A DNA stretch of 64,000 bases from a bacterium BMS3Abin06 (GCA_002897895.1 BDSY01000058.1:40109-104108), one strand, 5' to 3'; positions 3,593-17,136 are shown, counted from the first letter of the stretch. The notes: generated by a model from the sequence alone, not told the origin. A program made the numbers and translations.

Positions 3593-5080
3593 TCAAAAGG
3601 GCAGCTTGACCGGCAGTGATCCTTTAAAATTCCTTTCACCTTTTAAACATTTGATAACAGATACTTGTGCCTGTTTACTTGTATCGTATGCTGCAATGAG
3701 CAAATCCGCCTTCGGGAAATGTCCGAGCACGTAAGGACTCCCAAAGGATATCACGATTGAATTGCGGGAATTTTTTATAAGTTTCCGGATGATATTTATT
3801 TCATCGTCCCTGATACCTGAACTCCCTCCCCATGCAGCGATACTGGTGAAGAGGGCAAAGACGACTGTTTTCCGGAGAGACTCTTTTTCAGAGTCTTTGA
3901 TCCTGATATGTCCGGATATGAAATTTTTCAGAGTGGATAAGTCATGCTTGTTTTCATCAGCGGCAAATGCAAGAGAAAGACCCTGAGTATTTTTGATCGG
4001 CAGCACTCCGGGGGAGTCTTTCACAAGTGTGACGGACTTATCGGAAATTCTTTCGGAAAGCCCGGCATGTTCCTGATAATTAATTCCGGATTTTCGGATA
4101 TTTTTTATCTTTGATTTATATTTCAGAATTCTTTCCACGGCAGTGTCTATCGTCCCCTCATCAATCTTCCCTGATGCAACGGCCTGTTTAAGTTCTTCAA
4201 CAACCGAATCAGCATCTGCCGGATGAAGGAGGATGTCGCCCCCTGCATTTATGCACATTGCCGGGACATTTTCATATTCATTCAGGGCATGCATGTTCAG
4301 CGCATCCGTAAGAACAAGACCTTCATATCCCAAATCCGTTCTTAACAGGCCGGTTATCACTTTTTTTGAAAGAGAGGCAGGAAGTTCATCAATTGCCGGG
4401 ATGCTGAGGTGTCCGGTCATAATACTGCCGGCACCTGCTTTTACGGCTTCCCTGAAGGGGAATATATCCGTATTCATCAGCTCGTCAAAAGATTTGGAAA
4501 TAACGGGGAGGGCTATGTGGGAATCAATGGCTGTGTCGCCGTGTCCGGGGAAATGTTTGGCACAGCTTATCAGCCCTGCATCTTCAATGGTCTTTATGTA
4601 TGTTTTGCCGTACCATGAAACATTTTCCTGATTGTCGGAAAATGCCCTTGTACAGATTATCGGATTGTCGGGATTCCTGTTCACATCCATGACCGGTATG
4701 AGCGGCATATTGATTCCGATATCAATCGCTTCATGAGAAACAGCATTAATTACATCTTCGAGAATTTCCACGTCTGAGGAATTATTTTTATTGATTGCTG
4801 CGGCTACAGCCATCTGGCAGGGGAAATGAGTAGCTCCGTCTATTTGCTGTCCCACGCCCCGCTCTATATCGGATGCAATAAACAGGGGTGTTTCTGATAC
4901 AGACTGAAGTTTATTAATGAAAGTTTTTACTTCATTCCTTTTACCGCCAAACAGGATGAACCCTCCGATACCTTTTCGAACAAGTTCAGAAGCCCGCTCC
5001 TGATACTGAATTGAAGAGAGTTTTTCTCCATCAAGTCTGCTTATGATAAGTTGCCAGAGTTTTTGCTCAAGGCCGGACAT
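3593..5080 (-). CDS. Glycoside hydrolase family 3 protein (NagZ-like beta-N-acetylhexosaminidase / beta-glucosidase-like)
   Basis: KHFPGHGDT motif and GH3 N-terminal fold signature; 495 aa. Its first 144 nt lie inside direct-repeat copy 1. Confidence 0.7.
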   Translation of the reverse strand: MSGLEQKLWQLIISRLDGEKLSSIQYQERASELVRKGIGGFILFGGKRNEVKTFINKLQSVSETPLFIASDIERGVGQQIDGATHFPCQMAVAAAINKNNSSDVEILEDVINAVSHEAIDIGINMPLIPVMDVNRNPDNPIICTRAFSDNQENVSWYGKTYIKTIEDAGLISCAKHFPGHGDTAIDSHIALPVISKSFDELMNTDIFPFREAVKAGAGSIMTGHLSIPAIDELPASLSKKVITGLLRTDLGYEGLVLTDALNMHALNEYENVPAMCINAGGDILLHPADADSVVEELKQAVASGKIDEGTIDTAVERILKYKSKIKNIRKSGINYQEHAGLSERISDKSVTLVKDSPGVLPIKNTQGLSLAFAADENKHDLSTLKNFISGHIRIKDSEKESLRKTVVFALFTSIAAWGGSSGIRDDEINIIRKLIKNSRNSIVISFGSPYVLGHFPKADLLIAAYDTSKQAQVSVIKCLKGERNFKGSLPVKLPF

Positions 5081-5205
5081 AGAACATTATAAACTACTTT
5101 ACTGCTAAAACTCCTTGAGCCGCAGGGCATCTTTTAATGCCGGCAACATCCTTTTTACGCAGGCCCGCCCTTCTTCAATGGCTTCTGACGCCCGATCGAA
5201 TTCGA
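4937..5205. repeat. 269-bp direct repeat, copy 1 (left boundary of island)
   Basis: Identical by eye to 16003..16271. Contains the 5' end of the GH3 gene plus the native patatin/GH3 intergenic junction. Confidence 0.9.
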
Positions 5206-5223
5206 AGCGCACAAAAAAACTCT

Positions 5224-5270
5224 TGACTTTTGGCTTCCAAAAAGTGTATAAGTATAGTATAATATACTTA
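5224..5270 (+). promoter_or_regulatory. Sigma70-like promoter (TTGACT-17-TATAAG) overlapping palindrome TAAGTATA-N6-TATACTTA upstream of the ArsR-family gene
   Basis: -35 at 5224..5229, -10 at 5247..5252, inverted repeat at 5249..5270. This layout is typical of an autoregulated repressor operator. Confidence 0.5.
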
Positions 5271-5280
5271 AGGAGTAAAA

Positions 5281-5676
5281 ATGAAAGTTGAGGCCGAGTC
5301 TTTTAAGGTTCTTTCGGTAGAAACCAGAATAAAGATTATTGAAATGCTAAAGGCAGGGCCACTCCCTGTGAATACAATAACAGAAGCATTAGGGATTAGC
5401 CAATCAGCAGTATCACAGCATCTTCGCGTGCTAAAGCAAGCCGGTTTAGTTACAGACGAAAGAAGAGGTTATCACATCTTCTATTCATTGAATAAAGATA
5501 AACTCGACAAGTACCAACAGGAACTACTAAAGGTCTGCACATGTGGCTGCAAACTTGCCAAGAGAAAACAGATTTCCGAGACAAGAGAGGCGCTGTTAGA
5601 ATATAAAAAAAGACTTGAAAAAGAAATAAAAGATGTGGGAAAAAGAATCAGGGACCTCGAAAAAGCGGCAGGGTAA
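5281..5676 (+). CDS. ArsR/SmtB-family transcriptional regulator with C-terminal CTCGC motif and coiled-coil tail
   Basis: Winged-HTH signature TITEALGISQSAVSQHLRVLKQAGLV, followed by KVCTCGCKL and a charged heptad-like tail. Confidence 0.75.
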   Translation: MKVEAESFKVLSVETRIKIIEMLKAGPLPVNTITEALGISQSAVSQHLRVLKQAGLVTDERRGYHIFYSLNKDKLDKYQQELLKVCTCGCKLAKRKQISETREALLEYKKRLEKEIKDVGKRIRDLEKAAG

Positions 5677-5698
5677 CCTTATATTTTTTCTTTTTAAT

Positions 5699-5722
5699 TT
5701 AAGTATATGCTAATACACTTAA
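5699..5722 (+). promoter_or_regulatory. Palindromic operator-like motif TTAAGT-N12-ACTTAA immediately upstream of the peptide-1 RBS
   Basis: TTAAGTATATGCTAATACACTTAA. The same architecture recurs at 12547..12570. Confidence 0.5.
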
Positions 5723-5734
5723 AGGAGGTGGCCT

Positions 5735-5929
5735 ATGTGCCAGGGGGGCATAGCTATAAGTCTAAAAAATAATAATTGTGGTTGTGAAGCGAAATTTGAG
5801 GAGAGAATTATAGGCAAGGAGGATCTGCTTACACGGTTAAATGAATATAAAAGAAATTTAGAATCGGAACTTGTAATAGTCAATAGCAAGTTAGAATCAG
5901 CGTCTTCCGCCGAGAAAGGAGGTGAGTAA
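5735..5929 (+). CDS. Small protein (64 aa) with NCGCE motif and a coiled-coil tail resembling the ArsR C-terminus
   Basis: Strong SD AAAGGAGGTG. MCQGGIAISLKNNNCGCEAKFEE...LNEYKRNLESEL. Its stop overlaps the SD of the next gene. Confidence 0.5.
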   Translation: MCQGGIAISLKNNNCGCEAKFEERIIGKEDLLTRLNEYKRNLESELVIVNSKLESASSAEKGGE

Positions 5930-5931
5930 GC

Positions 5932-6051
5932 ATGGCAGATACAAAAAAGGATACCAAGAAAAACGGAACATTAGGCAATGTTGTAAAAGAAATTAAGACA
6001 TCTAATTGCGGATGCGGTTGTGGTTGTATCCCTCCGCCATTCAAAAAATAA
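5932..6051 (+). CDS. Cys-Gly-repeat micro-protein (39 aa): MADTKKDTKKNGTLGNVVKEIKTSNCGCGCGCIPPPFKK
   Basis: Perfect SD AAAGGAGGTGA six nt upstream and a strong terminator downstream. A paralogue sits at 12643..12756. It is not in the ORF track because it is too short. Confidence 0.6.
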   Translation: MADTKKDTKKNGTLGNVVKEIKTSNCGCGCGCIPPPFKK

Positions 6052-6060
6052 CAGAGGACT

Positions 6061-6098
6061 TTGTGGGGAAGAGAATTCTCTTCCCCACAAAATTTTTT
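6061..6098 (+). terminator. Rho-independent terminator (15-bp perfect stem TTGTGGGGAAGAGAA/TTCTCTTCCCCACAA followed by a T-run)
   Basis: Read directly from the sequence. It lies between the peptide gene and the MoaD-like gene. Confidence 0.8.
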
Positions 6099-6112
6099 AT
6101 TGAGGAAATAAA

Positions 6113-6385
6113 ATGAAAATTAAACTTTATGCCAATCTGCGTGATATTGTCGGAAAAGATGAATTAGAAATGGAACTAAAAGAACCCGTTTCGCTCATTG
6201 AGTTTTTGAGAAATATTTCTAATGATTATGGAGAAAAAATGAGGAAATTCTTATTCAAAGAAACAAATGAAATTGCAGAATCTCTAATTATATCTATTAA
6301 TGGCGAAGTCATTAAGGAAAATAAATCTATTTTCTTATCAAATAAAGATGAGCTATCAATCTTATTACCTTTAGCGGGGGGATAA
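6113..6385 (+). CDS. MoaD/ThiS-like ubiquitin-fold sulfur-carrier protein (ends in Gly-Gly)
   Basis: 90 aa with a C-terminal ...LLPLAGG. The pattern is MoaD-like. Confidence 0.65.
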   Translation: MKIKLYANLRDIVGKDELEMELKEPVSLIEFLRNISNDYGEKMRKFLFKETNEIAESLIISINGEVIKENKSIFLSNKDELSILLPLAGG

Positions 6386-6661
6386 TTGCAACGGATTGAA
6401 CATGTTATAGCTGAGATTGACCAATGTACAGGCTGTAATATGTGCACGTTAGCCTGTTCCATGGCACAAAAAGGGGCATTTAATCCAAGATACTCTAAGA
6501 TAAAGGTTCATCAAGAATTGATAGGCCTTGTTACAAAGATAGAATTTATTGAACAATGCGATATGAGTCTTTTAAGCCAATGTAATTTGATAGATTCTGA
6601 GCCGCTTTGTACTAAATATTGCATTTTTGATGCAATTAAATTTAAAAAAGTGGAGGATTAA
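6386..6661 (+). CDS. Small Cys-rich 4Fe-4S ferredoxin-like protein
   Basis: CTGCNMCTLAC (CxxCxxCxxxC) plus four further Cys. TTG start directly after the MoaD-like stop. Confidence 0.4.
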   Translation: MQRIEHVIAEIDQCTGCNMCTLACSMAQKGAFNPRYSKIKVHQELIGLVTKIEFIEQCDMSLLSQCNLIDSEPLCTKYCIFDAIKFKKVED

Positions 6662-6662
6662 A

Positions 6663-8006
6663 ATGAGTAATATTTTATTAATACGGCCTCATCCGGTAGT
6701 AGATGATACTAAAAATTTTCCTACCGAATCGCCTCCAATTGGTATAATCTCTCTTGGAAGTTTCCTGCGATCTAAGGGTATGGATGTCAAAGCCATTGAT
6801 TTATGCACTGACCCACAAACAGATATTGTTTCTGAAATCTTAAAAATTAAACCTGATATTGTTGGTATATCATCAATGACTTGCGACTTCCCCTCTGCCT
6901 TGAAAATTGTTGATCAAATCAAGCGACATTTTGATATTCCGACAGTTTTAGGAGGAGCACATCCAACTATATTTCCCAAGGAAGTTCTACAGAATCCCTC
7001 TATAGATTACGTAATAATTGGTGAAGGAGAATATGCCTTTCATGAGCTTATAATCGCGCTTAAGAATGATAAAGCATTCAGTGAAATAGCCTCTTTAGGT
7101 TACAAAGAGAATGGGTCGATTTTTACAAACCCGCGAAGACCATTTATTGATATTAATACTCTGCCCTTCCCTGATTACAGTTTCCTTGATAATGAGAAAT
7201 ACATTGATTTTGGAGAAAGATATCTTGGTTTTAGACACTTAGTAGCTGTTATCAGCAGGGGATGCACTAACAGATGTTCCTTTTGCGCTCAGCATCAGGT
7301 CTGGGGCAACCAGTTTAGATTCTTTTCTCCTGAGAGGGTGGTCTCTGAATTGAAAAGGTTGATGCAGGAATATAATGTTGAAGGCTTTTGGTTTAAGGAT
7401 AGCGTCCTCACAGTTAAAAACTGGACAATTCCATTTTGTGAGGAGATAAGCAGGCAAAAATTGAATGTTAAATGGGCGTGTTTAGCAAGGGTGGATCAGG
7501 TAGATAAAGAACTTATTAAAAGTATGAAGAAAGCCGGTTTAGTAAAATTATGGATAGGTGCAGAATCTGCTTCCGATAGAATTCTTCAGTTACTCAATAA
7601 ATGGATTACAGTGGATCAGACACGAAAAGCTTTTCGTATATGTAAAGACGAGTGTGTTGATACTGCAGCCTTTTTTATGTTTGGCCTCCCAACAGAAACA
7701 GTAGATGAGATGGAGTTAACCTTTGAGTTGATCCGTGAAACGAACCCTAAGCCATTGCATTTGGCAATTTATCACCCATTGCCAGGAACAGAATTGTACG
7801 AAAAATACAATGGGGCAGATGTCATAAAACATGCAAATCCCAGAGAGTTAGTCTTTGACATGGCCTGTATGTCAACAGGACCTGTGAGTAAAGAACTTGT
7901 TCAGGAGATATACGATAGCATTTGTAACTACTTCATCAAGAATGGCTCAAAACCTGACTTTAAAGAATTTAAGAGAATAGCCTCATTTCAGGAAGCGAGG
8001 GTTTAA
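6663..8006 (+). CDS. B12-binding-domain radical SAM enzyme (class B rSAM)
   Basis: N-terminal Rossmann-like B12-binding domain, then CTNRCSFC (CxxxCxxC). No SPASM-type C-terminal Cys cluster is visible. The start is chosen at the ATG after SD GGAGGA rather than the track's 6627. Confidence 0.7.
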   Translation: MSNILLIRPHPVVDDTKNFPTESPPIGIISLGSFLRSKGMDVKAIDLCTDPQTDIVSEILKIKPDIVGISSMTCDFPSALKIVDQIKRHFDIPTVLGGAHPTIFPKEVLQNPSIDYVIIGEGEYAFHELIIALKNDKAFSEIASLGYKENGSIFTNPRRPFIDINTLPFPDYSFLDNEKYIDFGERYLGFRHLVAVISRGCTNRCSFCAQHQVWGNQFRFFSPERVVSELKRLMQEYNVEGFWFKDSVLTVKNWTIPFCEEISRQKLNVKWACLARVDQVDKELIKSMKKAGLVKLWIGAESASDRILQLLNKWITVDQTRKAFRICKDECVDTAAFFMFGLPTETVDEMELTFELIRETNPKPLHLAIYHPLPGTELYEKYNGADVIKHANPRELVFDMACMSTGPVSKELVQEIYDSICNYFIKNGSKPDFKEFKRIASFQEARV

Positions 8007-9875
8007 TTGCTATACGGATATGCAGGAAAGATTCTCAGGATTAACCTAACAACATCCAAAATTACCAAAGAAGATATTCCAGAAGATTTCTACCAAAAGT
8101 ACCTCGGTGGTAATGGTTTTGGTGCACGACTACTTTATACAGAGCTGAAACCTAAAATAGATCCACTGAGCAGTGAAAATATTCTCATATTTGCAACAGG
8201 TCCTCTGAACGGCGCCATGATTCCAATGGCATCAAAGCTTTGTGCAATCTCAAAATCTCCTTTAACAGGAACATTTATGGATGGATTCTGCAGCGGGAGG
8301 ATTGGTTCTGAACTGAAATATGCCGGTTATGACATCCTTGTGATAGAGGGTAAGGCTGATAAGCCTGTCTATCTATTTGTCGATGATGACATTATTCAAT
8401 TAAGAGACGGAATGTCCCTATGGGGAAAAGATACATTTACAACCCAAATAATGATAAAGAACGAGTTAAAAGACGAAAGCGTTCAAGTTGCCTGTATTGG
8501 CCCGGCAGGTGAAAATTTGGTAAGGTATGCCTGCATTATAACAGAACAAAGGGCTGTTGGAAGTGGCGGGTTGGGCGCTGTCATGGGGTCTAAGAATCTA
8601 AAGGCAATAGCAGTTCGTGGGAGTAAGTTAGTCTCTGTATTTAACACTGCTAAATTAGAGCAATTTGTTCAACGGATAATAGTAAAGATCAAAGAAGAGC
8701 CAGCAGCTCAAGTTCTTTCAAAATACGGCACTGCGGTAGTTACGTCGGTTTTGCAATATATTGGAGGACTTCCAACGAAAAACTGGCAGTCAGGTATATT
8801 CCCGGATAGTAAGGCGCTTTCGGCAGAAACACTTGTCGATAAATATACACAGAAAAACTTATCATGTTTTGCCTGTATGATCCCATGTGGACATTATTCT
8901 GTCGTTAAAGAAGGCCCATATAAAGGGGCGATTACTAATGGTCCGGAATTTCAAAGCATAGGCGTTTTTGGCCCATTGACTGGAAATAAAAGATTGGATG
9001 CAATTATCATGGCCGATAGACTTTGCGATGAATACGGCTTAGGACAGATATCGGCAGGGGTTTGTATATCTTTTGCCATGGAATGTTTTGAGCGAGGACT
9101 TATTACCAAGAAAGATACCGATGGGATAGAGTTGAGATTTGGCAATCATGAAGCAATGATAAAGATGCTTAGAAAGATAACTTACAGGGAAGGGATAGGG
9201 GATATTCTTGCCGAAGGGGTTAAAAGGGCATCAGCTATTTTAGGAAGAGGTACAGAAAGATATGCCATCCATGTAAAAGGGATGGAGATGGCATGCTTCT
9301 GTCCCCGGGTTTTAAAGACACAGGCCTTTGGTTTTGTTGTCTCCTCAAAAGGACCAAGCCACAATGAAGTGCGTATTACAGCAGAATTGGGAAGATTAAT
9401 TCCTAATGACTTAAAGAACGGCTTAGGCTATTTGGCTAAAGAACTGATGGATTGGAGTGCAATAGCCAATTCATTAATTTGGTGTCTTAGTGCTGAAAGG
9501 ATTTTGGATATAAAATTATCCGAAGAAGTAGTAGAGATGCTCAACTTTACGACGGGAATGGATTTTGATAAAACAGAATTAGTTAAGATCGCTGAAAGGA
9601 TTCACAATTTGGAGCGTGCATTCAATATCAGGGAGGGTTTTAGCAAGCAGGATGATGTGCTTCCAAAAAGATTTCTGAAAGAGGCAATTCCGGAAGGACC
9701 TGCAAAGGGTCTGAAAATAAACAAAAAAATACTCAATGCAACTATCGATGAATACTATGCTGCCAGGGGGTGGGATAAAGGAGGCAGACCTACTATGAAT
9801 AAACTTTTAGAACTCGGATTAGAGGATGTAATGGTATATATAAATGATGAGGAGAGAATGCCTGCAGGAAAATGA
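8007..9875 (+). CDS. aor: Aldehyde:ferredoxin oxidoreductase family (tungsto-/molybdo-pterin) enzyme
   Basis: AOR N-terminal signature MLYGYAGKILRINL...LGGNGFGARLLY; 622 aa. TTG start abuts the rSAM stop. Confidence 0.8.
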   Translation: MLYGYAGKILRINLTTSKITKEDIPEDFYQKYLGGNGFGARLLYTELKPKIDPLSSENILIFATGPLNGAMIPMASKLCAISKSPLTGTFMDGFCSGRIGSELKYAGYDILVIEGKADKPVYLFVDDDIIQLRDGMSLWGKDTFTTQIMIKNELKDESVQVACIGPAGENLVRYACIITEQRAVGSGGLGAVMGSKNLKAIAVRGSKLVSVFNTAKLEQFVQRIIVKIKEEPAAQVLSKYGTAVVTSVLQYIGGLPTKNWQSGIFPDSKALSAETLVDKYTQKNLSCFACMIPCGHYSVVKEGPYKGAITNGPEFQSIGVFGPLTGNKRLDAIIMADRLCDEYGLGQISAGVCISFAMECFERGLITKKDTDGIELRFGNHEAMIKMLRKITYREGIGDILAEGVKRASAILGRGTERYAIHVKGMEMACFCPRVLKTQAFGFVVSSKGPSHNEVRITAELGRLIPNDLKNGLGYLAKELMDWSAIANSLIWCLSAERILDIKLSEEVVEMLNFTTGMDFDKTELVKIAERIHNLERAFNIREGFSKQDDVLPKRFLKEAIPEGPAKGLKINKKILNATIDEYYAARGWDKGGRPTMNKLLELGLEDVMVYINDEERMPAGK

Positions 9876-9926
9876 AAAGAAATTATTGTACATAACAGCT
9901 TTATCAATTGAATGAGGTAAAAAATT

Positions 9927-10943
9927 ATGAATAACAGATTTTTCTCAACCCAAAAAGGCCACACAAAATTATGGATAACAATTGGAATAATTGTTCTTTT
10001 TCTGATTGCTATGGGCTTATTTATATTTTCAAACAAAAAACCTGCTGATGAAATAATTATAGGTTATAGTGCATTACGCATAAGCCTTCCTGTCTTTGCT
10101 GCAAAAGAAAAAGCTTATTTTGCCGGAGAAGGTTTGAATGTTAAATTAGTAAGGTTTGACACTGCTCAACCTTTAATGACTTCTCTTGTTGCCGGCAGCG
10201 TCCGGATAGCCGGTTATACGGCCTTGCCAATAACTTATAATGCCATGCTCAGAAGTAAAACAGATCTGTATTTTGTTACAGCAATGCTTGAAGACCAAAA
10301 ACATAGAATAAGTTATCTGATTGTTCCCAAAGATACTCCGGATACTTTTACGATTGCTGAGTTAAAAGGCAAAAAGATTGGTATTCTTCCAACAGTTGCA
10401 TACAGGGCATGGTTAGAAGAAATACTGAAATTTAACGAAGTAGATCCTTCAGATGTTAAAATTGTGCAAATTACTCCGGCTCTTACTCCTTCCGCATTAG
10501 AATCCGGTCAAGTTAATGCACTCTTTACTAATGATCCTGCTGCTACAACAATTCTACAACGAGGAATCGGTAGATTGCTTAGTAAAGAAGTTGAAGTTCC
10601 AAAAATATTTGGAGAGCAATTTGTTTTTGGCAGCTTTAATATTAGAAAAGACTTTGCAGACAGCAATCCTGAGATAGCAGCAAAAATAGTTAGGGCATTA
10701 GATAAGGCAGTAACATTTGTTAATAACAATCCGGATGAAGCAAAACGGATAATGAAGAAATATTTACATGAATTACAAAAACCTTTTGTGGATTTCTACC
10801 CGGATGCCCTTTATCAAACCACTACAGAAGTTGATCCTGAAAAATTCCAGGATATTGCAGATAAATATTTAGAAATTGGAATAATCCAGAAGCCATTAAA
10901 GGTTGAGCATTTGGTTATTTCCGAAAAAATTTTTTTAAAATGA
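9927..10943 (+). CDS. ABC transporter substrate-binding protein, NitT/TauT (SsuA/TauA/ThiY-like) family
   Basis: N-terminal signal/anchor followed by an NMT1-like fold pattern. Confidence 0.6.
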   Translation: MNNRFFSTQKGHTKLWITIGIIVLFLIAMGLFIFSNKKPADEIIIGYSALRISLPVFAAKEKAYFAGEGLNVKLVRFDTAQPLMTSLVAGSVRIAGYTALPITYNAMLRSKTDLYFVTAMLEDQKHRISYLIVPKDTPDTFTIAELKGKKIGILPTVAYRAWLEEILKFNEVDPSDVKIVQITPALTPSALESGQVNALFTNDPAATTILQRGIGRLLSKEVEVPKIFGEQFVFGSFNIRKDFADSNPEIAAKIVRALDKAVTFVNNNPDEAKRIMKKYLHELQKPFVDFYPDALYQTTTEVDPEKFQDIADKYLEIGIIQKPLKVEHLVISEKIFLK

Positions 10944-10947
10944 AAGC

Positions 10948-11667
10948 ATGATTGAAATAAAAAATCTTAAAAAGAAATTTTTTTGCAATGGCAGCAATAA
11001 ATCCTTGTTTTCCGGATTTGATTTAGTAATCAGAAAAAGCGAGAAGATTGGACTTTTCGCACCAAATGGAAGTGGAAAAAGCACTCTTTTAAATATTTTA
11101 GCAGGAGTTGATAAAGATTTTGCCGGCACGGTTTCTATAGAAGGGAAACGTATAAGCTATATGCACCAGGACACTAATGCAACCTTAGCTCCCTGGTTTA
11201 CTTGTGAAAAGAATATTTTGCTTGTAAGGAAATATCATCACTTAGGCATTGAAAAAGGGAAAGCTTTACTTAAACGGTTTGTTAATGAAATAGAAATCAA
11301 CTTTTCTTTAGACCAATATCCTTTTATGCTTAGTGGCGGCCAGAGACAAATAGTTGCACTTCTGCGGGCATTGATATTTGAACCGGATGTTTTATTATTG
11401 GATGAGCCTTTCTCTGCTCTTGACATTGAAAAACGAGCTGCTTTTATAGAGTTTTTAACAAAACACTTCACTAATAATCTTACAGTAATAATGTGCTCTC
11501 ATAGAGGGGATGAGGTTAAATCATTGCTTGACAGAGCTGTAATTCTAGAACATCAGTCAGAAACAAGGATTACGATGGATATTTGTCGTTCCAAGTTCCA
11601 CTCTAAACAAGAATTTGAACAGATTATCTCTAAAATCAGATTTAAGAAAAACGGACATGAAATATAA
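10948..11667 (+). CDS. ABC transporter ATP-binding protein (NitT/TauT family)
   Basis: Walker A GSGKST, signature LSGGQRQ, Walker B LLLDEP. Confidence 0.8.
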   Translation: MIEIKNLKKKFFCNGSNKSLFSGFDLVIRKSEKIGLFAPNGSGKSTLLNILAGVDKDFAGTVSIEGKRISYMHQDTNATLAPWFTCEKNILLVRKYHHLGIEKGKALLKRFVNEIEINFSLDQYPFMLSGGQRQIVALLRALIFEPDVLLLDEPFSALDIEKRAAFIEFLTKHFTNNLTVIMCSHRGDEVKSLLDRAVILEHQSETRITMDICRSKFHSKQEFEQIISKIRFKKNGHEI

Positions 11668-12403
11668 GACCTCACTTATAGGGATTTTTTCGGCGGTTAC
11701 TATCTGGCAAATCATTGCCTGGTTAAAAATATTCAATCCAATTTATTTTGCCTCGCCCTATGAAGTAATTGCTGAATCAATCAAAATGATTCAGGGAGGC
11801 GCTGTTTTCATAGACCTTACACTCACTATTTACAGAATAGCTGTCAGTGTTATTATATCCTCACTTATTGGCATACCTCTTGGCATTGCCTTTGGTTATT
11901 TTGCTCGTATCTATAAATATGTCGGCGAAATAGTGGATTTCCTGCGTTCAATCCCGCCAATTGTAATTTATCCATTGCTCCTTATTGTCTTGGGACCCGG
12001 AGATAGTTCAAGAATAGGCGTTGCTCTTTTTGGCTCAATAGTTGTTTTGGTTCTTATTATTTCTAACGGGTTATTTCAACAAGCGCCATTGAGAAGACAA
12101 TATTTTGCATCTCTTGGAGCCAATAAGGTTCAGCTCGTAAACCACATTGTCTGGTATGAAGCGCTGCCTCATGTTATGGTCGCTTTAAGAACAGCAGTAT
12201 CCCTATCCATTATTATTATAGTGGTTACAGAAATGCTTGTTGGCGCACAATATGGTTTGGGGACAAGGGTACAGAACGTTCAAATTACCAGCAACATTCC
12301 CGATTTATTTGTCACTATCATTATTATTGGTTTAATTGGTGTTTTATTTAATAAAACCTTAATCTGTCTTGATAAGAAGCTTGTTTTTTGGAAATCTAAT
12401 TGA
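11657..12403 (+). CDS. ABC transporter permease (binding-protein-dependent inner-membrane component)
   Basis: Hydrophobic throughout. The start is set at the ATG overlapping the ATPase stop. Confidence 0.7.
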   Translation: MKYKTSLIGIFSAVTIWQIIAWLKIFNPIYFASPYEVIAESIKMIQGGAVFIDLTLTIYRIAVSVIISSLIGIPLGIAFGYFARIYKYVGEIVDFLRSIPPIVIYPLLLIVLGPGDSSRIGVALFGSIVVLVLIISNGLFQQAPLRRQYFASLGANKVQLVNHIVWYEALPHVMVALRTAVSLSIIIIVVTEMLVGAQYGLGTRVQNVQITSNIPDLFVTIIIIGLIGVLFNKTLICLDKKLVFWKSN

Positions 12404-12546
12404 TAAATTTATTGTGGAGACTTTCTTATAAAAGTTTGTATGCTTCGCAGAATTTTGCAAAACTCAGAAAGAAAAATTTGCTCTAATTTACATGATATTG
12501 ATGAAAGAGATAAGAAGGGGTAAATAATTTTAATTTCGCTTTGTAT

Positions 12547-12570
12547 TTAAGTATATGCTTATTAACTTAA
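12547..12570 (+). promoter_or_regulatory. Second copy of the operator-like palindrome TTAAGT-N12-ACTTAA
   Basis: TTAAGTATATGCTTATTAACTTAA, about 70 nt upstream of the third peptide gene. Confidence 0.5.
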
Positions 12571-12642
12571 TTACATTAGGGTTATTTTGCTGAGGAGAAG
12601 ACATTTTTTGATGCATAATCCACAGAAAGGAGGTGATAAAAA

Positions 12643-12756
12643 ATGGCTGACAAAAGCAAAAAGAAGTCTTGTGGCTGTGGATGCGATATGCTGAAGCAAT
12701 CTAGCCGCAAAGCCGCAAAAGACGAGAAAGAGTCAAAAGTCATAAGTAAGAAGTAG
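12643..12756 (+). CDS. Cys-Gly-repeat micro-protein (37 aa): MADKSKKKSCGCGCDMLKQSSRKAAKDEKESKVISKK
   Basis: Same SD AAAGGAGGTGA and MAD-K-rich N-terminus plus CGCGC core as 5932..6051. Not in the ORF track. Confidence 0.55.
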   Translation: MADKSKKKSCGCGCDMLKQSSRKAAKDEKESKVISKK

Positions 12757-12854
12757 TCAGACTCGGCCTCACCAAAAGGGGGTAGGTTCAGAAATCGCTT
12801 GCCCCCTTAACTCCAATAATATTCTAATATTACGATTCAATAAAGGAGGAAATA

Positions 12855-13991
12855 ATGAAAAAATTAAATATTGAAGAAATTAGAGAACTATCCGAGAAGC
12901 TTGCATCTGAGAAATTGGCGCCACGTGCCGCAGAGATTGATCAGAACCGTACCTTTCCCTGGGAGAACATTCGAGCACTTGGAGAAGCTGGTTTCCTTGA
13001 GTTGATCATTTCTGAGGACAACGGTGGCTTAGGATTTGGGCGAGTCTGCTTTGCTTCGGTTGCAGAGGAGATAGCTAAGGCCTGCGCTTCCACCGCTCTT
13101 ATATATGTTTCTCACTCAATCGTGACAAAGGCGATAGAACTTGCAGGTAGCGAGGCTGCAAAGAAGAACTGGTTAACTAAAATGTTAACAGGACAATCGC
13201 TTGGAGCGTTCGCTGTCCACGAGCCTGACTCCGGCAGCAACTCCGGAGCCATCACCACATTGGCAAAGAAGGAAGGCGATCACTATATCGTAAATGGTTC
13301 AAAATTTTTCATTACTTCAGCCGGGGAGGCCGACTTCTACCTGGTCCTCGTCAGGACTGACCCGGAAAAGGGGCCTCAGGGTATGAGCACATTGCTCATT
13401 GAAAAAAACACTCCCGGTCTTTCCTTCGGTCAACACGAAGATAAGATGGGTCTGACAAGTACTTCCTCAAGGGAGATGTTTTTCAGCGATTGCCTTGTAC
13501 CGAAGGAAAATCTGATAGGCAATGAAGGTGAGGGAACACAGGTTATTGGGAAAACTGTAGTTGGTTTGGGGTTCTTCGGAGCTGCCGCGATATCTGTCGG
13601 AATCGCAAGATCAGCCACTGAACTTGCAATCAAACATGCCAAGGAAAGAGCCATAGCAGGACAACCCATTGCCGTTCATCAAGCCGTTCAGTTCATGATC
13701 ACGGACATGATTCTTGGGAATGAAGCCGCAGAAGCATTTCTCAAAGTATGTGCTGCAAGAGCTGACTCAACTCAAGGCGCTGCCGTTATTAATGGGTTTA
13801 AGGCTAAGCTTTTAGCCTCTGAGATGGCTGTGGATGTTACAAACAAGGCAATCCAGGTTATGGGTGGTCATGGATACTGCCGGGATTATATAGTTGAAAG
13901 GCTTTTTCGCGACGCCCGGGGATTGACGCTTCACTTCAAAACTTCCGAGTGGCTTCGACAGGATATTGCCAAGGCAGCATTGGGATTGTAA
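12855..13991 (+). CDS. Acyl-CoA dehydrogenase
   Basis: ACAD fold pattern; 378 aa; good SD. Confidence 0.8.
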   Translation: MKKLNIEEIRELSEKLASEKLAPRAAEIDQNRTFPWENIRALGEAGFLELIISEDNGGLGFGRVCFASVAEEIAKACASTALIYVSHSIVTKAIELAGSEAAKKNWLTKMLTGQSLGAFAVHEPDSGSNSGAITTLAKKEGDHYIVNGSKFFITSAGEADFYLVLVRTDPEKGPQGMSTLLIEKNTPGLSFGQHEDKMGLTSTSSREMFFSDCLVPKENLIGNEGEGTQVIGKTVVGLGFFGAAAISVGIARSATELAIKHAKERAIAGQPIAVHQAVQFMITDMILGNEAAEAFLKVCAARADSTQGAAVINGFKAKLLASEMAVDVTNKAIQVMGGHGYCRDYIVERLFRDARGLTLHFKTSEWLRQDIAKAALGL

Positions 13992-14016
13992 AAGCACAGG
14001 CAGGTCAACACACTAT

Positions 14017-14396
14017 CGAGCGGTGAAAGACAGAGGGCATGGCGCTTGCTCAAAAACCCCGGATACTTTTACTTGATGAGCCGATGACCTTTCTGGACAT
14101 TCATCACCAGTTCGAGATAATGGAGTTGTTGCAGAGACTCCAGAAGACTCCAGAAGGGTCTTGACATTACAGTAATCATGGTCATCCATGACCTGAACCA
14201 TGTGGCAAGGTTCAGCCACAGGGTAATTGCGCTGAAACATGGCCGTGTAATCAAGGATGGGTATCCACATGAAGTAATAACCGAGGATATCCTGAGAGAT
14301 GTTTTTGGAGTGAAGGCAAAGGTAATGGTAATGGCATTTAAGGATCATCATAATCGTGATTTCACTTTATGTTTCCCCTGTGGGGTCTGTAAGTAA
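14017..14396 (+). pseudogene. 5'-truncated, frameshifted remnant of a FecE/BtuD-type (iron-siderophore/cobalamin class) ABC ATPase
   Basis: ALAQKPRILLLDEP...LQRLQK then a frame change to ...LDITVIMVIHDLNHVARFSHRVIALKHGRVI. The frameshift coincides with a 10-bp tandem duplication AGACTCCAGA at 14135..14154. Walker A and signature regions are absent. Confidence 0.7.
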
Positions 14397-14411
14397 GCGG
14401 GAAGTGAAAAA

Positions 14412-15254
14412 ATGATCAGGACAGAAAATTTAACAAAGTATTACGGCAGTAAATGCGCTGTCAATTCGGTCTCCTTCAATATCAGGAAAGGAGAAGTCTT
14501 CGCGCTGCTCGGTCCTAACGGGGCCGGTAAGACAACAACCATTAAGATGCTGACCACCCTGAGCAGGCCTACAGAAGGAAAGATATTCATTAATAATCTT
14601 GATGTGGTAGTCGATCAGTTAAAGGTCAAGAGGCTGGTGGCCGTTGTGCCGCAGGTGGGAAACTTTGACAGGGAGCTTTCAGTATATGAAAACATGCTTG
14701 TTTACGGGATGCTTTATGGAGTAAAGGAGCCCGGACCGAAGATAGAAAAAAATCTTGATGCTTTAGGGCTGCTGAAAGAGAGAGATACCATTGCAGAGGT
14801 CCTTTCGGGCGGCATGCAGAGGAGGCTCCTTATTGCAAAAGCGCTCTTATCGGAGCCCGATGTCCTGTTCCTTGATGAACCAACAGTAGGACTTGATCCC
14901 CATGTGAGAAGGGAGATCTGGGACATTATCAGGAACATACGGAACAATGGGAAGACAATTCTGATGACCACCCACTATATCGAAGAGGCAGAGATGCTTT
15001 GTGATAGGATCGGTATCCTGTCTCATGGAAGCCTGATCGCAATAGATACTCCAGGGAACTTGAAGGACAACATAGGCAGATATGTTGTAGAAATTCCATC
15101 ATCCAATGGCAGCGGAAGGACTGAGCGTGTCATATGCAGAGACAGGGCTGAGGCGGAAGAGACCGCCCGAAGGTCTGACAACAGAGTTGTGATCAGGCCT
15201 GCAAATCTGGAAGACGTATTTATTCAACTGACAGGGGAGATGGTCGAGGGATGA
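14412..15254 (+). CDS. ABC-2 type exporter ATP-binding protein
   Basis: GPNGAGKTT, LSGGMQRRL and LFLDEPT motifs. Confidence 0.8.
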   Translation: MIRTENLTKYYGSKCAVNSVSFNIRKGEVFALLGPNGAGKTTTIKMLTTLSRPTEGKIFINNLDVVVDQLKVKRLVAVVPQVGNFDRELSVYENMLVYGMLYGVKEPGPKIEKNLDALGLLKERDTIAEVLSGGMQRRLLIAKALLSEPDVLFLDEPTVGLDPHVRREIWDIIRNIRNNGKTILMTTHYIEEAEMLCDRIGILSHGSLIAIDTPGNLKDNIGRYVVEIPSSNGSGRTERVICRDRAEAEETARRSDNRVVIRPANLEDVFIQLTGEMVEG

Positions 15255-15988
15255 ACTGGTACCCGGTATTTTACAGGGAGATGCTGCTCTTTAAGAAAAA
15301 GCTCTGTAAGCTTGGTTATGTCTTTTCATCTCTATTGTTCCCGGTGCTCTATCTGGTGGCATTTGGCATGGGGCTTGGCAGAAGGGTAAATATTGAGGGA
15401 ACGGGTTATATAGAGTTTCTTATTCCGGGCATAGCCGCCATGACCTCGATGACAAATTCATATAACCTTGTTTCAAACTCTTTAAGTATGGGCAGGCTTT
15501 TTTTTAAGAGCTTTCAGGTTGTTATCCAGTCACCTCTGCCGCATTTCTCGATCATGACAGGAATAGTGTTTTCGGGGATTGTGAAGGGAGCACTTGCATC
15601 TGCAGTTATTGTCCTCGCGGGCTTGATAATATTCAGGGCCTTTCCATTCAGTCTTGTCTCTTTTCTTGGGCTTTTATTAAACCTGATATTGTTCTCCTCT
15701 ATGGGTGTAGTCGCAGGGCTGCTTATAAGGTACCCTGAAGATAATGCTATTTATACCAACTTCTTTATAATGCCGATGGCATTCTTCTCGGGTACATTCT
15801 TTCCTGTAGACAATCTGCCGGCAGCGGTAAAAGGCATAATCATGTTTTTACCGCTGCACTACACCAACATTCTGATAAGAAGCGATGAACTGAGCAAGGA
15901 GGTGATTCTGCCGATATCAGTATTACTTGCAGTTTCGATAACACTATTTTTATGCGGAGCAAAACTGATTAAAAATTACAGTGAATAA
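15251..15988 (+). CDS. ABC-2 type exporter permease
   Basis: Six-TM-like hydrophobic protein; overlaps the ATPase stop by 4 nt. Confidence 0.7.
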   Translation: MNWYPVFYREMLLFKKKLCKLGYVFSSLLFPVLYLVAFGMGLGRRVNIEGTGYIEFLIPGIAAMTSMTNSYNLVSNSLSMGRLFFKSFQVVIQSPLPHFSIMTGIVFSGIVKGALASAVIVLAGLIIFRAFPFSLVSFLGLLLNLILFSSMGVVAGLLIRYPEDNAIYTNFFIMPMAFFSGTFFPVDNLPAAVKGIIMFLPLHYTNILIRSDELSKEVILPISVLLAVSITLFLCGAKLIKNYSE

Positions 15989-16002
15989 TTTCGGGCGTTA
16001 TC

Positions 16003-16271
16003 CCTTTTACCGCCAAACAGGATGAACCCTCCGATACCTTTTCGAACAAGTTCAGAAGCCCGCTCCTGATACTGAATTGAAGAGAGTTTTTCTCCATCAA
16101 GTCTGCTTATGATAAGTTGCCAGAGTTTTTGCTCAAGGCCGGACATAGAACATTATAAACTACTTTACTGCTAAAACTCCTTGAGCCGCAGGGCATCTTT
16201 TAATGCCGGCAACATCCTTTTTACGCAGGCCCGCCCTTCTTCAATGGCTTCTGACGCCCGATCGAATTCGA
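16003..16271. repeat. 269-bp direct repeat, copy 2 (right boundary of island)
   Basis: Identical to 4937..5205. It carries an orphan 5' fragment of the GH3 gene on the minus strand (16003..16146) and supplies the last ~33 codons of the patatin gene. Confidence 0.9.
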
Positions 16272-17136
16272 GCAGTCCAATCTGCCCTAATCGCGGGGCA
16301 AGCATAACATCCGGCGGGTCACCGGCCATCCGGCTTCTTGTGATGCGGTCCTGCATGATATTTATGGAGCTGGCCAGGACATCAAACAATCCCGGCGTGC
16401 CCGAGGGTTGGGGCATAATGGAAGTCGCCCGTTCCTTGAGGCTTGCGGAGAGCTTTTCAAGGAGTTTTCTCTCAGTGCTTGCTTCTTTTCTTTTAAGAGA
16501 CTTTCCCCGGCTTTTACGAAGATGTTTGCCGACTATGTCCCCGTTCAGGTTAACGGCAATGACTACCTGTGCCCCCATCGCACGGCAAAGTGAAACCGGT
16601 ACAGGGTTAACCAGGCCGCCGTCCACTAACCATTTATCATCAAGTTTTACAGGCGTAAAGATGCCGGGCAAAGCAATGGATGCGCGTACGGCATCTAAAA
16701 GCGATCCCTTTGTGAACCAGGTTTCACGGCCTGAATTTAAATCAGTAGCAACTGTTCCAAAAACTCCCGGAAGTTCTTCAATTAACCGGATACTGATATG
16801 CTTGTGCAGAAAGTCCATCAGGCGTTTACCCTGAACAAACCCTCCTCCTTCAACCAGTTTTATATCCAGATATCGAACTATATCGCGTACGTGCAGGCTT
16901 CGCACCAGGTCTTCGAGCATGTCGAGTTGATTGCAAAGGTAAGCTGCTCCGACGAGTGCACCGACTGAAGTGCCGCATACGATATCAGGTTTTATGCCTG
17001 ACTCACTGAGAGCGTGGAGCACACCTATATGCCCCCAGCCGCGTGCAGAACCGCTGCCGAGTGCAAGGCCGATTATATTCCGTTTTGTTTTCATTGAATC
17101 AACAATCATTATTACGTTAATAATACAATATGTCAT
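16171..17136 (-). CDS. Patatin-like phospholipase (RssA-like)
   Basis: GxSxG (GTSVG) nucleophile elbow and DGG motif. Confidence 0.75.
   Translation of the reverse strand: MTYCIINVIMIVDSMKTKRNIIGLALGSGSARGWGHIGVLHALSESGIKPDIVCGTSVGALVGAAYLCNQLDMLEDLVRSLHVRDIVRYLDIKLVEGGGFVQGKRLMDFLHKHISIRLIEELPGVFGTVATDLNSGRETWFTKGSLLDAVRASIALPGIFTPVKLDDKWLVDGGLVNPVPVSLCRAMGAQVVIAVNLNGDIVGKHLRKSRGKSLKRKEASTERKLLEKLSASLKERATSIMPQPSGTPGLFDVLASSINIMQDRITRSRMAGDPPDVMLAPRLGQIGLLEFDRASEAIEEGRACVKRMLPALKDALRLKEF

Follow-up and report, generated by a model that had tools for sequence, protein, structure and literature searches.

The locus considered here lies in a window of 64,000 nucleotides (the whole stretch of bacterial DNA that was analysed) and carries three similar palindromes, two of them on either side of a gene for an ArsR/SmtB-family regulator and the third farther downstream. 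It raises the question of whether a single regulator switches its own gene as well as two units that encode small cysteine-containing peptides. The initial annotation had proposed a dimeric winged-helix ArsR-family repressor that regulates itself and both peptide loci. All of the computational tests that we ran supported this reading of the sequence, and we consider it likely that the three palindromes are operators of the protein encoded at 5281..5676, by which it would switch both itself and the cysteine-peptide units.

Palindromic sites and the arsR promoter

On re-reading of the window sequence, site 1 (TAAGTATA-N6-TATACTTA, 5249..5270), site 2 (TTAAGTATATGCTAATACACTTAA, 5699..5722) and site 3 (TTAAGTATATGCTTATTAACTTAA, 12547..12570) were found where the initial annotation had described them. 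The difference of 2 bp in spacing that it had reported between them proved to be an artefact of notation, because site 1 had been written as 8-6-8 and sites 2 and 3 as 6-12-6. Site 1 also reads TAAGT-N12-ACTTA, with the same geometry in all three, and deviates only at the base outside the left half-site, where A is present in place of T. The candidate operators, to which no strand is assigned, are thus O1 (TAAGTATAGTATAATATACTTA, 5249..5270; 28.5 bits), O2 (TAAGTATATGCTAATACACTTA, 5700..5721; 28.3 bits) and O3 (TAAGTATATGCTTATTAACTTA, 12548..12569; 26.0 bits on the plus strand and 29.1 bits on the minus strand). All three are exact matches to TAAGT-N12-ACTTA and are the only ones in the 64 kb, with matches containing one mismatch occurring at the level of chance. 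Scores were obtained with a 29-nt weight matrix trained on 25 arsR promoter sites, comprising 24 from other genomes and one (L001) that is a near-identical copy of the window's own site 1. In a scan of the window, O1 to O3 scored 26–29 bits, and the next best match, within a coding region, scored 17 bits.

A -35 hexamer (TTGACT, 5223..5228, plus strand) with an A-tract just 5' of it and a -10 hexamer (TATAAG, 5247..5252, plus strand) that overlaps the left half of O1 were read from the sequence upstream of arsR. The hexamers of the TTGACT-17-TATAAG promoter proposed earlier, as well as its overlap with the inverted repeat, were thus confirmed, whereas the spacer is 18 nt rather than 17. O1 covers the -10 element and the predicted transcription start of arsR, and its right end falls 10 nt short of the ATG at 5281. 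At the equivalent position, nearly all related loci contain TTGAC(A/T) followed after 17–18 nt by TATA(A/T)(G/T). Relatives in Nitrospirota, Desulfobacterota, Chloroflexota, Planctomycetota, Spirochaetota and other groups have TTGACA, 17–18 nt, and then TATA(A/T)AGT...ACTTA(A/T), and the placement of the motif in the arsR promoter, at -10/+1, is shared by relatives across many phyla.

Given that the left half-site resembles a -10 hexamer, part of the conservation of O1 could reflect promoter function. The sites might even be explained altogether by likeness to AT-rich promoters (TATAAG or TATACT as a -10-like hexamer within the left half) together with chance, without a dedicated regulator, and TATACTTAA also serves as the -10 element of an unrelated promoter, 5' of a TPP riboswitch at 42991. 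The counts already contradict this explanation, which we regard as extremely improbable: the full 22-bp pattern is present three times and is confined to these loci, the longer pattern TTAAGT-N10-14-ACTTAA occurs twice in the window versus 0.06 expected by shuffling (no shuffled sequence yielded two), and the remaining 749 kb of flanking DNA in 79 related loci contain no site of at least 22 bits. The ACTTA right half and the inner T/A positions are, moreover, conserved as strongly as the left half.

The right ends of O1 and O2 abut ribosome-binding sites, and O1 as RNA folds with -6.3 kcal/mol (z = -2.4), features that would suit a 5'-leader hairpin governing how the arsR and peptide mRNAs are translated or how stable they are. 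Given the conserved -35 and -10 elements, however, transcription should start within O1, and the left arm of O1 would therefore not be transcribed. The fold of O2 equals that of shuffled sequences (z = -0.02), and no Rfam family was matched. The 22-bp consensus is T-W-A-G-T-a-n-a-T N4 A-t-n-t-A-C-T-W-A, and among 102 sites identity is kept at mirror positions 1, 3, 4, 5 and 9. Either A or T occupies position 2, with complementarity to position 21 in only 49% of sites, and the inner positions are complementary in 24–59%. The mirror positions are thus conserved without covariation, and a protein site is therefore to be expected rather than a hairpin; we judge an action of the sites as RNA to be highly improbable.

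Sites 2 and 3 resemble each other only in a segment of about 31 nt that contains the palindrome, in the ribosome-binding site and in the initial codons of the peptide genes, and a recent duplication of the whole promoter region is therefore not indicated.

The regulator and the units downstream of O2 and O3

The regulator (131 amino acids; 5281..5676, plus strand) consists of a winged-helix core, a C86-x-C88-G-C90 loop and a long COOH-terminal helix. It matched Pfam HTH_5 (PF01022) with 57.5 bits (cut-off, 22) and NCBIfam NF033788 with 92.8 bits (cut-off, 55), and comparison of the family profile with the structures of NmtR, CzrA and SmtB gave E values of 1e-13 to 1e-15. At the level of sequence, it thus presents the features of an ArsR/SmtB protein, an HTH_5-type winged helix and an inverted repeat over its own promoter. 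An AlphaFold model (mean pLDDT, 83.6) showed the helices and beta-wing of the core, with residues 72–85 as the last core helix and a further helix at residues 91–130. C86, C88 and C90 are the only cysteines of the protein. The CxCGC motif is nearly invariant among relatives, and all members of the family share the recognition helix QSAVSQHL. In one relative (L005), loss of the cysteines is accompanied by loss of both the operator and the peptide downstream. Short relatives that lack the long COOH-terminal helix retain both sites.

O2 is located in the 58-nt gap 3' of arsR and is followed by an AGGAGG ribosome-binding site and the ATG at 5735. A few bases 5' of O2 is a T-rich tract, TTTTTTCTTTTT (5684..5695, plus strand). 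In 33 of 33 contexts of arsR-downstream operators, a run of 5–9 T residues ends 4–10 nt before the 29-nt matrix match, which itself begins 5 nt 5' of the operator core, and no hairpin was found ahead of the T-run in these 33 contexts. The T-run was also present in 7 of the 12 downstream-type matches in metagenomes.

The first gene after O2 (5735..5929, plus strand) encodes a 64-amino acid protein with NH2-terminal cysteines (MCQG...CGC) and a coiled coil. This protein matched no Pfam or NCBIfam family; its orthologs occupy the equivalent position in four related loci (L002, L003, L007 and L008), and longer relatives are found in Desulfobacterales and Chloroflexi. Comparison with the tails of ArsR proteins by hhalign (probability, 95.4%; E = 1.8e-8) indicates that the 64-amino acid protein and the COOH-terminal tail of the regulator are homologous. 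The next gene (5932..6051, plus strand) has a ribosome-binding site and encodes a lysine-rich peptide of 39 amino acids with the COOH-terminus CGCGCGCIPPPFKK (type A, with C-x-C-x-C near the COOH-terminus). It is absent from all public gene calls of the locus. Alignment of the peptide with 22 peptides of related loci revealed three invariant cysteines, and a profile search recovered 270 clusters, every one of them unnamed or annotated as hypothetical. An intrinsic terminator (6060..6091, plus strand), formed by a perfect hairpin of 14 pairs and then ATTTTTTATT, closes the arsR/64-amino acid protein/39-amino acid peptide transcription unit.

O3 lies 73 nt upstream of a gene with a ribosome-binding site (12643..12756, plus strand) for a 37-amino acid peptide, MADKSKKKSCGCGCDML... 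(type B, with an NH2-terminal cysteine motif and a lysine-rich tail). A relative of this peptide is encoded directly 3' of arsR in one related locus (L036), with a DNA identity of 73%. Downstream of the peptide gene is a gene of the acyl-CoA dehydrogenase family (12855..13991, plus strand; Pfam Acyl-CoA_dh N, M and C domains), which probably shares the regulated unit. Orthologs of the acyl-CoA dehydrogenase gene follow arsR and the peptide gene in L009 (66% identity) and follow arsR and the gene for a 66-amino acid cysteine/coiled-coil protein in L006. The block ends with an ABC-2 type exporter (14412..15988, plus strand), with ATPase (14412..15254) and permease (15251..15988) genes that match Pfam ABC_tran and ABC2_membrane. 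The exporter possibly belongs to the regulon, and ATPases with 38–47% identity are encoded directly 3' of arsR in approximately 11 Chloroflexota-type loci.

A recognizable -35 element was looked for at O2 and O3 and found at neither; at O3, neither a clear -35 element nor a T-run was detected, and a promoter scan yielded a weak candidate upstream. The lack of a -35 element is typical of activator-dependent promoters, and HlyU of the ArsR family is among the proteins described as activators, as judged from molecule names and general knowledge. The regulator might therefore bind as proposed and yet activate at O2 and O3, or O2 might serve mainly to loop DNA with O1, given that the long COOH-terminal helix of the model could allow contacts between dimers. 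An activator, however, would be poorly placed at these sites, which are situated over or after the -10-like element and not 5' of it. O1 and O2 are 341 to 573 bp apart, without helical phasing (Rayleigh p = 0.15–0.9), and both sites are retained in the short relatives that have no long helix. Activation and looping thus appear unlikely compared with repression by the bound regulator.

Related loci and metagenomes

Sites of at least 22 bits were located upstream of arsR in 61 of the 79 related loci, a figure that is partly circular because the matrix was trained on 25 upstream sites. They were located just downstream of arsR in 40 loci and on both sides in 34. The downstream sites were outside the training set, and neither their count nor that of the metagenome matches is circular. 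A blind scan of metagenomes for TAAGTATATGCTNATNNACTTA, performed with DNA alone, yielded 44 stretches, of which 29 adjoin an ArsR gene (28 homologs of the window's regulator and one other ArsR). About one-third of the matches were without a nearby ArsR gene, and some of these represent a separate, repeated perfect palindrome.

The few metagenome stretches that contain the palindrome and no ArsR gene within the stretch examined would be consistent with binding by another regulator encoded elsewhere, with the adjacent arsR being merely one of its targets. The motif, however, travels with the ArsR clade across phyla and lies upstream of the gene in 61 and downstream of it in 40 of the 79 loci, and the DNA-only search itself led to an adjacent ArsR gene in the majority of stretches (29/44). 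A second conserved regulator gene was not found in the related loci, and it is well established that ArsR/SmtB proteins as a rule regulate themselves through a palindrome that overlaps their promoter. We therefore consider another regulator very unlikely and continue to assign the sites to the ArsR/SmtB-family protein.

In most loci, the downstream operator precedes a gene for a C-x-C-x-C peptide, usually of about 38 amino acids, or for a cysteine/coiled-coil protein. The gene after the peptide frequently encodes a CopD-like membrane protein, an ABC-2 exporter or an acyl-CoA dehydrogenase. The CopD-like proteins of L014 and L007 matched Pfam PF05425 with 42.5 and 42.1 bits, respectively (gathering score, 32.1), and the NCBIfam CopD equivalog was missed (48 versus 195); the window contains no CopD-like gene. 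The CopD-like, CDF and ABC-2 neighbors point to metals, and a DsrE-like protein with a cysteine desulfurase (L036) and the acyl-CoA dehydrogenase, which is related to desulfinases, point to sulfur.

Anaerobic bacteria from many phyla share the predicted arrangement of regulator, operator and peptide, for which we found no name in the databases and literature that we searched. Within the theme of ArsR/SmtB repressors and their operators, it is both new and widespread. The sequence has thus yielded a testable regulon, made up of a single regulator with its 22-bp operator and its targets, that spans uncultured anaerobes of many phyla, Nitrospirota, Desulfobacterota, Chloroflexota and Planctomycetota among them. 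It has also revealed a family of C-x-C-x-C proteins of about 38 amino acids that are mostly missed by gene callers and are unnamed in the databases searched. The operator can serve as a search key for further unannotated microprotein genes and regulon members.

Relation to known sensors and proposed mechanism

In the SmtB-SmtA system of Synechococcus and the BxmR-BmtA system of Oscillatoria, an ArsR/SmtB repressor controls a metallothionein gene and its own expression. The present system shares with them a winged-helix ArsR/SmtB repressor, the core of which aligns with SmtB, CzrA and NmtR, as well as an imperfect inverted repeat over the promoter, more than one copy of the operator and, as predicted here, autoregulation and a small cysteine-rich protein as the target. 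The SmtB-type operator is a 12-2-12 repeat with TGAA/TTCA, whereas that described here is 9-4-9 (TWAGTAnAT-N4-ATnTACTWA). The putative sensor is a COOH-terminal CxCGC loop rather than alpha3N or alpha5, and the genes are codirectional, arsR being flanked by two operators, rather than divergent. In contrast to SmtA and BmtA, the peptides are of about 38 amino acids with a single C-x-C-x-C. We rejected their assignment as SmtA/BmtA metallothioneins, given that they contain only three invariant cysteines and that the 39-amino acid, 37-amino acid and related peptides matched no Pfam or NCBIfam model, metallothionein models included.

Several known sensor types were also rejected for the regulator. 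The alpha3 segment PLPVNTITEALG lacks cysteine and thus the C-V-C-D-L-C of R773-type As(III) ArsR proteins. Helix 72–85 (KDKLDKYQQELLKV) lacks histidine and does not provide the Asp/His/His/Glu set of the SmtB/CzrA alpha5 zinc sensors. Scores for TsoR (NF045707; 51.6 versus a cut-off of 115) and SdpR (NF033789; 70 versus 100) were too low. BigR and SqrR sense persulfide or sulfite with a cysteine pair in alpha2 and alpha5. They resemble the present regulator in the ArsR fold, an AT-rich palindrome over the -10 element, thiol-based sensing (predicted here) and, in some regulons (L036), sulfur-handling genes; their targets differ, however, and assignment to this type was rejected on the basis of the NF040642 score (44.2 versus 155 bits) and a core without cysteine.

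The ArsR of Acidithiobacillus ferrooxidans has a COOH-terminal As(III) site formed by Cys95, Cys96 and Cys102. As in this protein and CmtR, the cysteines of our regulator lie past the DNA-binding core near the COOH-terminus and offer three thiols for trigonal coordination. They differ in that the spacing here is C-x-C-G-C, a helix of about 40 residues homologous to a separate small protein follows, and the regulon contains no ars genes. ArsR2 of Pseudodesulfovibrio mercurii ND132, with homologs reported in Desulfovibrionaceae only, is encoded upstream of hgcAB, is cotranscribed with its targets, and has a four-cysteine site of C47, C49, C86 and C88 (10.1101/2022.10.17.512643). It is likewise an ArsR-family regulator of an anaerobe with noncanonical cysteines including Cys86 and Cys88. 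The words "operator" and "inverted repeat" do not occur in the text of the preprint (10.1101/2022.10.17.512643), and no hgcAB was noticed, without a dedicated search, among the listed open reading frames 3' of arsR.

What the sequences show is the motif, its statistics, its conserved placement with respect to arsR and the peptide genes, and its co-occurrence with the regulator; binding, repression, effector and peptide function are predictions. A dimer on O1 would mask the -10 element and predicted start of the regulator's own strong promoter and thereby repress arsR transcription. On O2, directly 5' of the genes for the 64- and 39-amino acid proteins, it would repress a weak promoter without a -35 element or, alternatively, block readthrough by polymerase from arsR. 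A dimer on O3 would act 5' of the unit for the 37-amino acid peptide, acyl-CoA dehydrogenase and possibly the ABC-2 exporter. The sensor would be the COOH-terminal C-x-C-G-C loop, placed between the dimerization helix and the long COOH-terminal helix, with three thiols, as in the C-x-C-x-C motif of the peptides. Binding or modification of these thiols by a thiophilic ligand would remove the regulator from DNA and allow the small thiol-rich proteins to be made. Candidate ligands are metals and metalloids of the Cu(I), Cd, Hg and As(III) type or sulfane sulfur; the effectors suggested initially (As, Sb, Cd, Zn and Cu) are reasonable, and reactive sulfur is an equally possible candidate. The identity of the effector would reveal which thiophilic stress these organisms of sediments and vents monitor. 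In other genomes, the switch would also control a CopD-like membrane protein, ABC-2 exporters or a CDF transporter.

The CxCGC loop and long helix would constitute a previously undescribed sensory module, and its existence also in free-standing form suggests a partner-switch layer new to ArsR/SmtB sensors. In a more novel reading, which we hold to be rather unlikely, O2 and the T-run would form a repressor-dependent terminator, the tail of the regulator would have arisen by fusion of a copy of the small protein, and the peptides would represent a new class of buffer. Polymerase from the leaky autoregulated promoter might stall at the bound dimer on a U-rich hybrid and drop off, so that the regulator would always be made and the thiol-rich microproteins only once the effector removes the dimer. 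The neighboring cysteine/coiled-coil protein could pair with the regulator tail as a cosensor or antirepressor, and the C-x-C-x-C peptides could be widespread metal or sulfane-sulfur buffers, of about 38 amino acids, of anaerobes.

A B12-radical SAM gene adjacent to the peptide gene suggested the peptides as RiPP precursors, an assignment that we rejected because of the lack of conserved co-occurrence with a modifying enzyme. A radical SAM relative was present in 1 of the 79 related loci, with 22% identity and on the opposite strand about 4 kb upstream of arsR, and in the window a strong terminator stands between the peptide gene and the radical SAM cluster.

Three palindromes of one geometry in the window

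We found the three palindromes exactly where the initial annotation had placed them. Site 1 (O1), TAAGTATA-N6-TATACTTA (5249..5270), ends 10 nt before the ATG of arsR (5281..5676, + strand), which encodes the 131-amino-acid regulator; site 2 (O2), TTAAGTATATGCTAATACACTTAA (5699..5722), is located in the 58-nt gap after arsR, directly before an AGGAGG and the ATG at 5735; and site 3 (O3), TTAAGTATATGCTTATTAACTTAA (12547..12570), precedes a 37-amino-acid open reading frame by 73 nt. Two small corrections to the earlier description were necessary. The sites had been said to differ by 2 bp in spacing, but all three have the same geometry, TAAGT-N12-ACTTA, with the apparent difference arising because site 1 was written as 8-6-8 and sites 2 and 3 as 6-12-6. 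The spacer of the arsR promoter, between TTGACT (–35, 5223..5228) and TATAAG (–10, 5247..5252), is 18 nt rather than 17. This promoter is strong, comprising an A-tract, a consensus –35 element and TATAAG, and the operator lies over its –10/+1 region. Neither a –35 element nor a T-run was present at O3.

A search of the window for TTAAGT-N10-14-ACTTAA yielded two matches against 0.06 expected. Exact TAAGT-N12-ACTTA occurs three times in the 64 kb and only at these three loci, so that within the window the motif is not a frequent random one; matches with one mismatch were at the level of shuffled sequence. A 29-nt weight matrix built on arsR promoter sites scored the three sites at 26–29 bits and nothing else in the window above 17. 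The resemblance between sites 2 and 3 covers ~31 nt around the palindrome and, beyond this, extends only to the ribosome-binding site and the initial codons of the peptide genes; it is the element itself, not a duplicated region, that is conserved. Other occurrences of TAAGTATA (31783, 42991 and 53739) were rejected as operators, given that they lie in coding sequence or form the –10 element of a TPP-riboswitch promoter. The TPP riboswitch itself is located at 42999..43101 (Rfam RF00059, 66.2 bits), behind a TTGACA...TATACT promoter that holds one of these stray TAAGTATA matches.

Conservation and nature of the proposed operator

We performed a comparative scan with one genome per species (80 loci, 79 of them non-self), in which 7–10 kb on either side of arsR was examined. 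The arsR promoter in almost all loci reads TTGACA, 17–18 nt, TATA(A/T)AGT ... ATACTTA(A/T). The matrix had been trained on 25 upstream sites, one of which, from locus L001, is a near-identical copy of site 1. A site scoring at least 22 bits was found 10–110 nt upstream of arsR in 61 of the 79 loci, just after arsR in 40 and on both sides in 34, and the remaining 749 kb of these loci contained no site at that threshold. The downstream sites, which were absent from the training set, thus confirm the pattern independently. Metagenome contigs searched for TAAGTATATGCTNATNNACTTA at the DNA level alone supplied a further independent test, in which 28 of 44 stretches adjoined a homologue of the regulator and one adjoined a CVC-type ArsR, with the others representing contig ends or an unrelated, repeated perfect palindrome. 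The conserved sites flanking arsR and the metagenome scan support the original proposal that a dimeric repressor would both autoregulate and control the peptide genes; binding and the direction of regulation at the three sites are predicted from sequence.

The perfect palindrome, TATAAGTATATGCTTATATACTTATA, occurs in pairs with 200–650 bp between the copies, and the stretches examined around them lack an ArsR gene; the pairs are at 482..503 and 699..720 of L089, 13276..13297 and 13493..13514 of L110, and 12987..13008 and 13631..13652 of L115. The 40 nt before each copy in L115 are nearly identical, and the pairs may represent another element, repeated or mobile, in which the motif also occurs.

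A relative of the regulator with 62% identity, at 3816..4202 of L005, has lost the cysteine motif (VRIFTDGG); its promoter contains no operator and no cysteine peptide is encoded downstream. This single locus is a natural case of co-loss of the regulator cysteines, operator and peptide.

A palindrome in this position might also act as an RNA hairpin. Among 102 sites, with the consensus TWAGTAnAT-N4-ATnTACTWA, mirror positions 1, 3, 4, 5 and 9 were constant (T, A, G, T ... T), whereas position 2 was A or T, with a complementary base at its mirror position in only 49% of sites; for the inner positions, complementarity was 24–59%. Such a pattern marks a site bound by a dimeric DNA-binding protein rather than base-paired RNA. 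The predicted RNA folds were weak, with site 1 at –6.3 kcal/mol and site 2 not surpassing shuffled sequences, and no Rfam family matched the sites. In addition, the conserved –35 and –10 elements imply that transcription would begin inside site 1. An RNA hairpin was rejected on the fold energies together with the lack of covariation.

At the operator downstream of arsR, each of the 33 contexts examined had a run of 5–9 T residues that ended 4–10 nt ahead of the matrix match, with the run being located at 5684..5695 in the window and at the equivalent position in L002–L068. It was also present in 7 of 12 downstream-type metagenome hits. An intrinsic terminator before O2 was rejected because the sequence ahead of the T-run forms no hairpin (mean z = –0.2 for 33 loci). 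No –35 element was found at O2 in any locus. The region could be a –35-less promoter, or the T-run could supply a U-tract at which polymerase, on meeting bound repressor, dissociates. The distance between O1 and O2 ranges from 341 to 573 bp without helical phasing, so DNA looping between them is unsupported.

The regulator and the small cysteine-rich proteins

Both its fold and its model scores (Pfam HTH_5; NCBIfam NF033788 above cut-off) place the regulator firmly in the ArsR/SmtB family, and its core aligns to the structures of NmtR, CzrA and SmtB. The α3 CVC motif and α5 ligands are absent, and the tests for identity with R773 ArsR, α5 Zn sensors, BigR/SqrR, TsoR and SdpR each failed. The regulator has C86-T-C88-G-C90 in their place, and this motif is nearly invariant among relatives. 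In the AlphaFold model, the CxCGC motif is part of a low-confidence loop that connects the last core helix (72–85) to a long COOH-terminal helix (91–130, DSSP), with residues 92–98 below pLDDT 50. The clade is large, with its nearest members in Nitrospirota MAGs, and shorter relatives (~100 amino acids) stop soon after CTCGC, without the long helix.

Site 2 is followed by a gene for a 64-amino-acid protein with NH2-terminal cysteines and a coiled coil (5735..5929), a gene for a 39-amino-acid lysine-rich peptide ending CGCGCGCIPPPFKK (5932..6051) and a strong terminator (6060..6091). Site 3 is followed by a gene for a 37-amino-acid peptide, MADKSKKKSCGCGC... (12643..12756), and then by genes for an acyl-CoA dehydrogenase and an ABC-2 exporter. 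Among open reading frames of up to 110 codons in the window, only those of the 39- and 37-amino-acid peptides have both a ribosome-binding site and C-x-C-x-C. No Pfam or NCBIfam match was obtained for any of the three small proteins, and the peptides were not metallothioneins by any model. The gene for the 39-amino-acid CGCGCGC peptide was called in none of eight public gene-call sets of the locus, and those for the 64- and 37-amino-acid proteins in only some of them.

The COOH-terminal tail of the regulator, comprising CxCGC and the helix (5536..5673), is homologous to the family of the 64-amino-acid protein (hhalign probability 95.4%, E = 1.8e-8), a relation seen by profile comparison; BLASTP gave no match between the two. 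In several loci from Desulfobacterales and Chloroflexota, arsR is followed by a gene for a free-standing cysteine/coiled-coil protein. The tail and the small protein appear to be related by domain fusion or fission, a pattern suggesting that the regulator and the 64-amino-acid protein act jointly.

Probable target genes, likely effector and genomic setting

In other genomes, the gene after the downstream operator encodes either a lysine-rich peptide of ~31–46 amino acids ending C-x-C-x-C-(I/V)-P-P-x-K or a cysteine/coiled-coil protein of 60–83 amino acids. A search with a profile built from the peptides retrieved 270 clusters, all unnamed or "hypothetical." The next gene often encodes a CopD-family membrane protein (21 loci, Pfam CopD above threshold); a search of the window yielded no CopD-like gene. 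The next gene in Chloroflexota-type loci encodes an ABC-2 exporter 38–47% identical to that of the window, and in L009 and L006 an acyl-CoA dehydrogenase like that after site 3. Given these matches, the window holds three recurrent members of the putative regulon: the peptides, the dehydrogenase and the exporter. Judged from translations, L019 encodes an apparent cation-diffusion-type transporter, and L036 a peptide with an NH2-terminal cysteine motif like the 37-amino-acid peptide, followed by an apparent DsrE-like protein and an apparent cysteine desulfurase.

We propose that a dimer of the regulator would repress its own gene at O1 and, from O2 and O3, repress the cysteine-rich genes or block their expression, and that a thiophilic ligand acting on the CxCGC loop would release it. 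That the sensor loop carries the same three-thiol motif as the peptides suggests a ligand common to both. Metals such as Cu(I), Cd, Hg or As(III), favored by the CopD-like, CDF-like and ABC-2 neighbors, are on our rough estimate a little better than an even bet as effector; sulfane sulfur, to which the DsrE-like and cysteine desulfurase neighbors and the relatedness of the dehydrogenase to desulfinases point, is a serious though less probable candidate.

The system would work like SmtB-SmtA and BxmR-BmtA, with an ArsR-family repressor, palindromic operators and a small thiol-rich target, and appears to be a new, widespread variant of the ArsR/SmtB repressor-operator theme. ArsR2 of the hgcAB locus has a cysteine pattern different from that of the regulator, and a text search of the ArsR2 preprint (10.1101/2022.10.17.512643) found no mention of an operator. 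The literature searched, including that on TsoR and hgcAB-ArsR, contained no description of the regulator, operator or peptide family.

Between the peptide loci (6113..12403) are genes for a ThiS/MoaD-like protein, a 4Fe-4S protein, a B12-radical SAM enzyme, a tungsten-type aldehyde:ferredoxin oxidoreductase and a NitT/TauT-type ABC importer. The strong terminator separates the first peptide gene from this cluster, which was not found beside arsR in other genomes. A RiPP reading of the peptides was rejected because the radical SAM neighbor is not conserved.

The block from arsR to the ABC-2 exporter (5206..15999, 10.8 kb) lies between the two copies (4934..5205 and 16000..16271) of a perfect direct repeat of 272 nt. 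The repeat covers the 5' end of a GH3 gene on the – strand (3593..5080) as well as the 3' end of a patatin-like gene, also on the – strand (16171..17136), and each gene thus has a truncated counterpart at the opposite end. A domain search found no integrase or transposase domain in the block. Two independent assemblies (L125 and L126) share the left junction with the GH3 gene, and homology with L001 begins at 5213. In another strain (L130 and L131), the genes for the regulator and the 64-amino-acid protein and the ThiS-like genes lie beside nitrogenase-like genes, as far as the contigs reach. Given the repeat, the junctions and these other placements, the cassette looks mobile or rearranging. 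Between the acyl-CoA dehydrogenase and ABC-2 exporter genes, two short open reading frames (41 and 72 amino acids; 14039..14396), the longer without a Pfam match, have translations resembling fragments of an ABC-transporter ATPase and are probably a pseudogene remnant.
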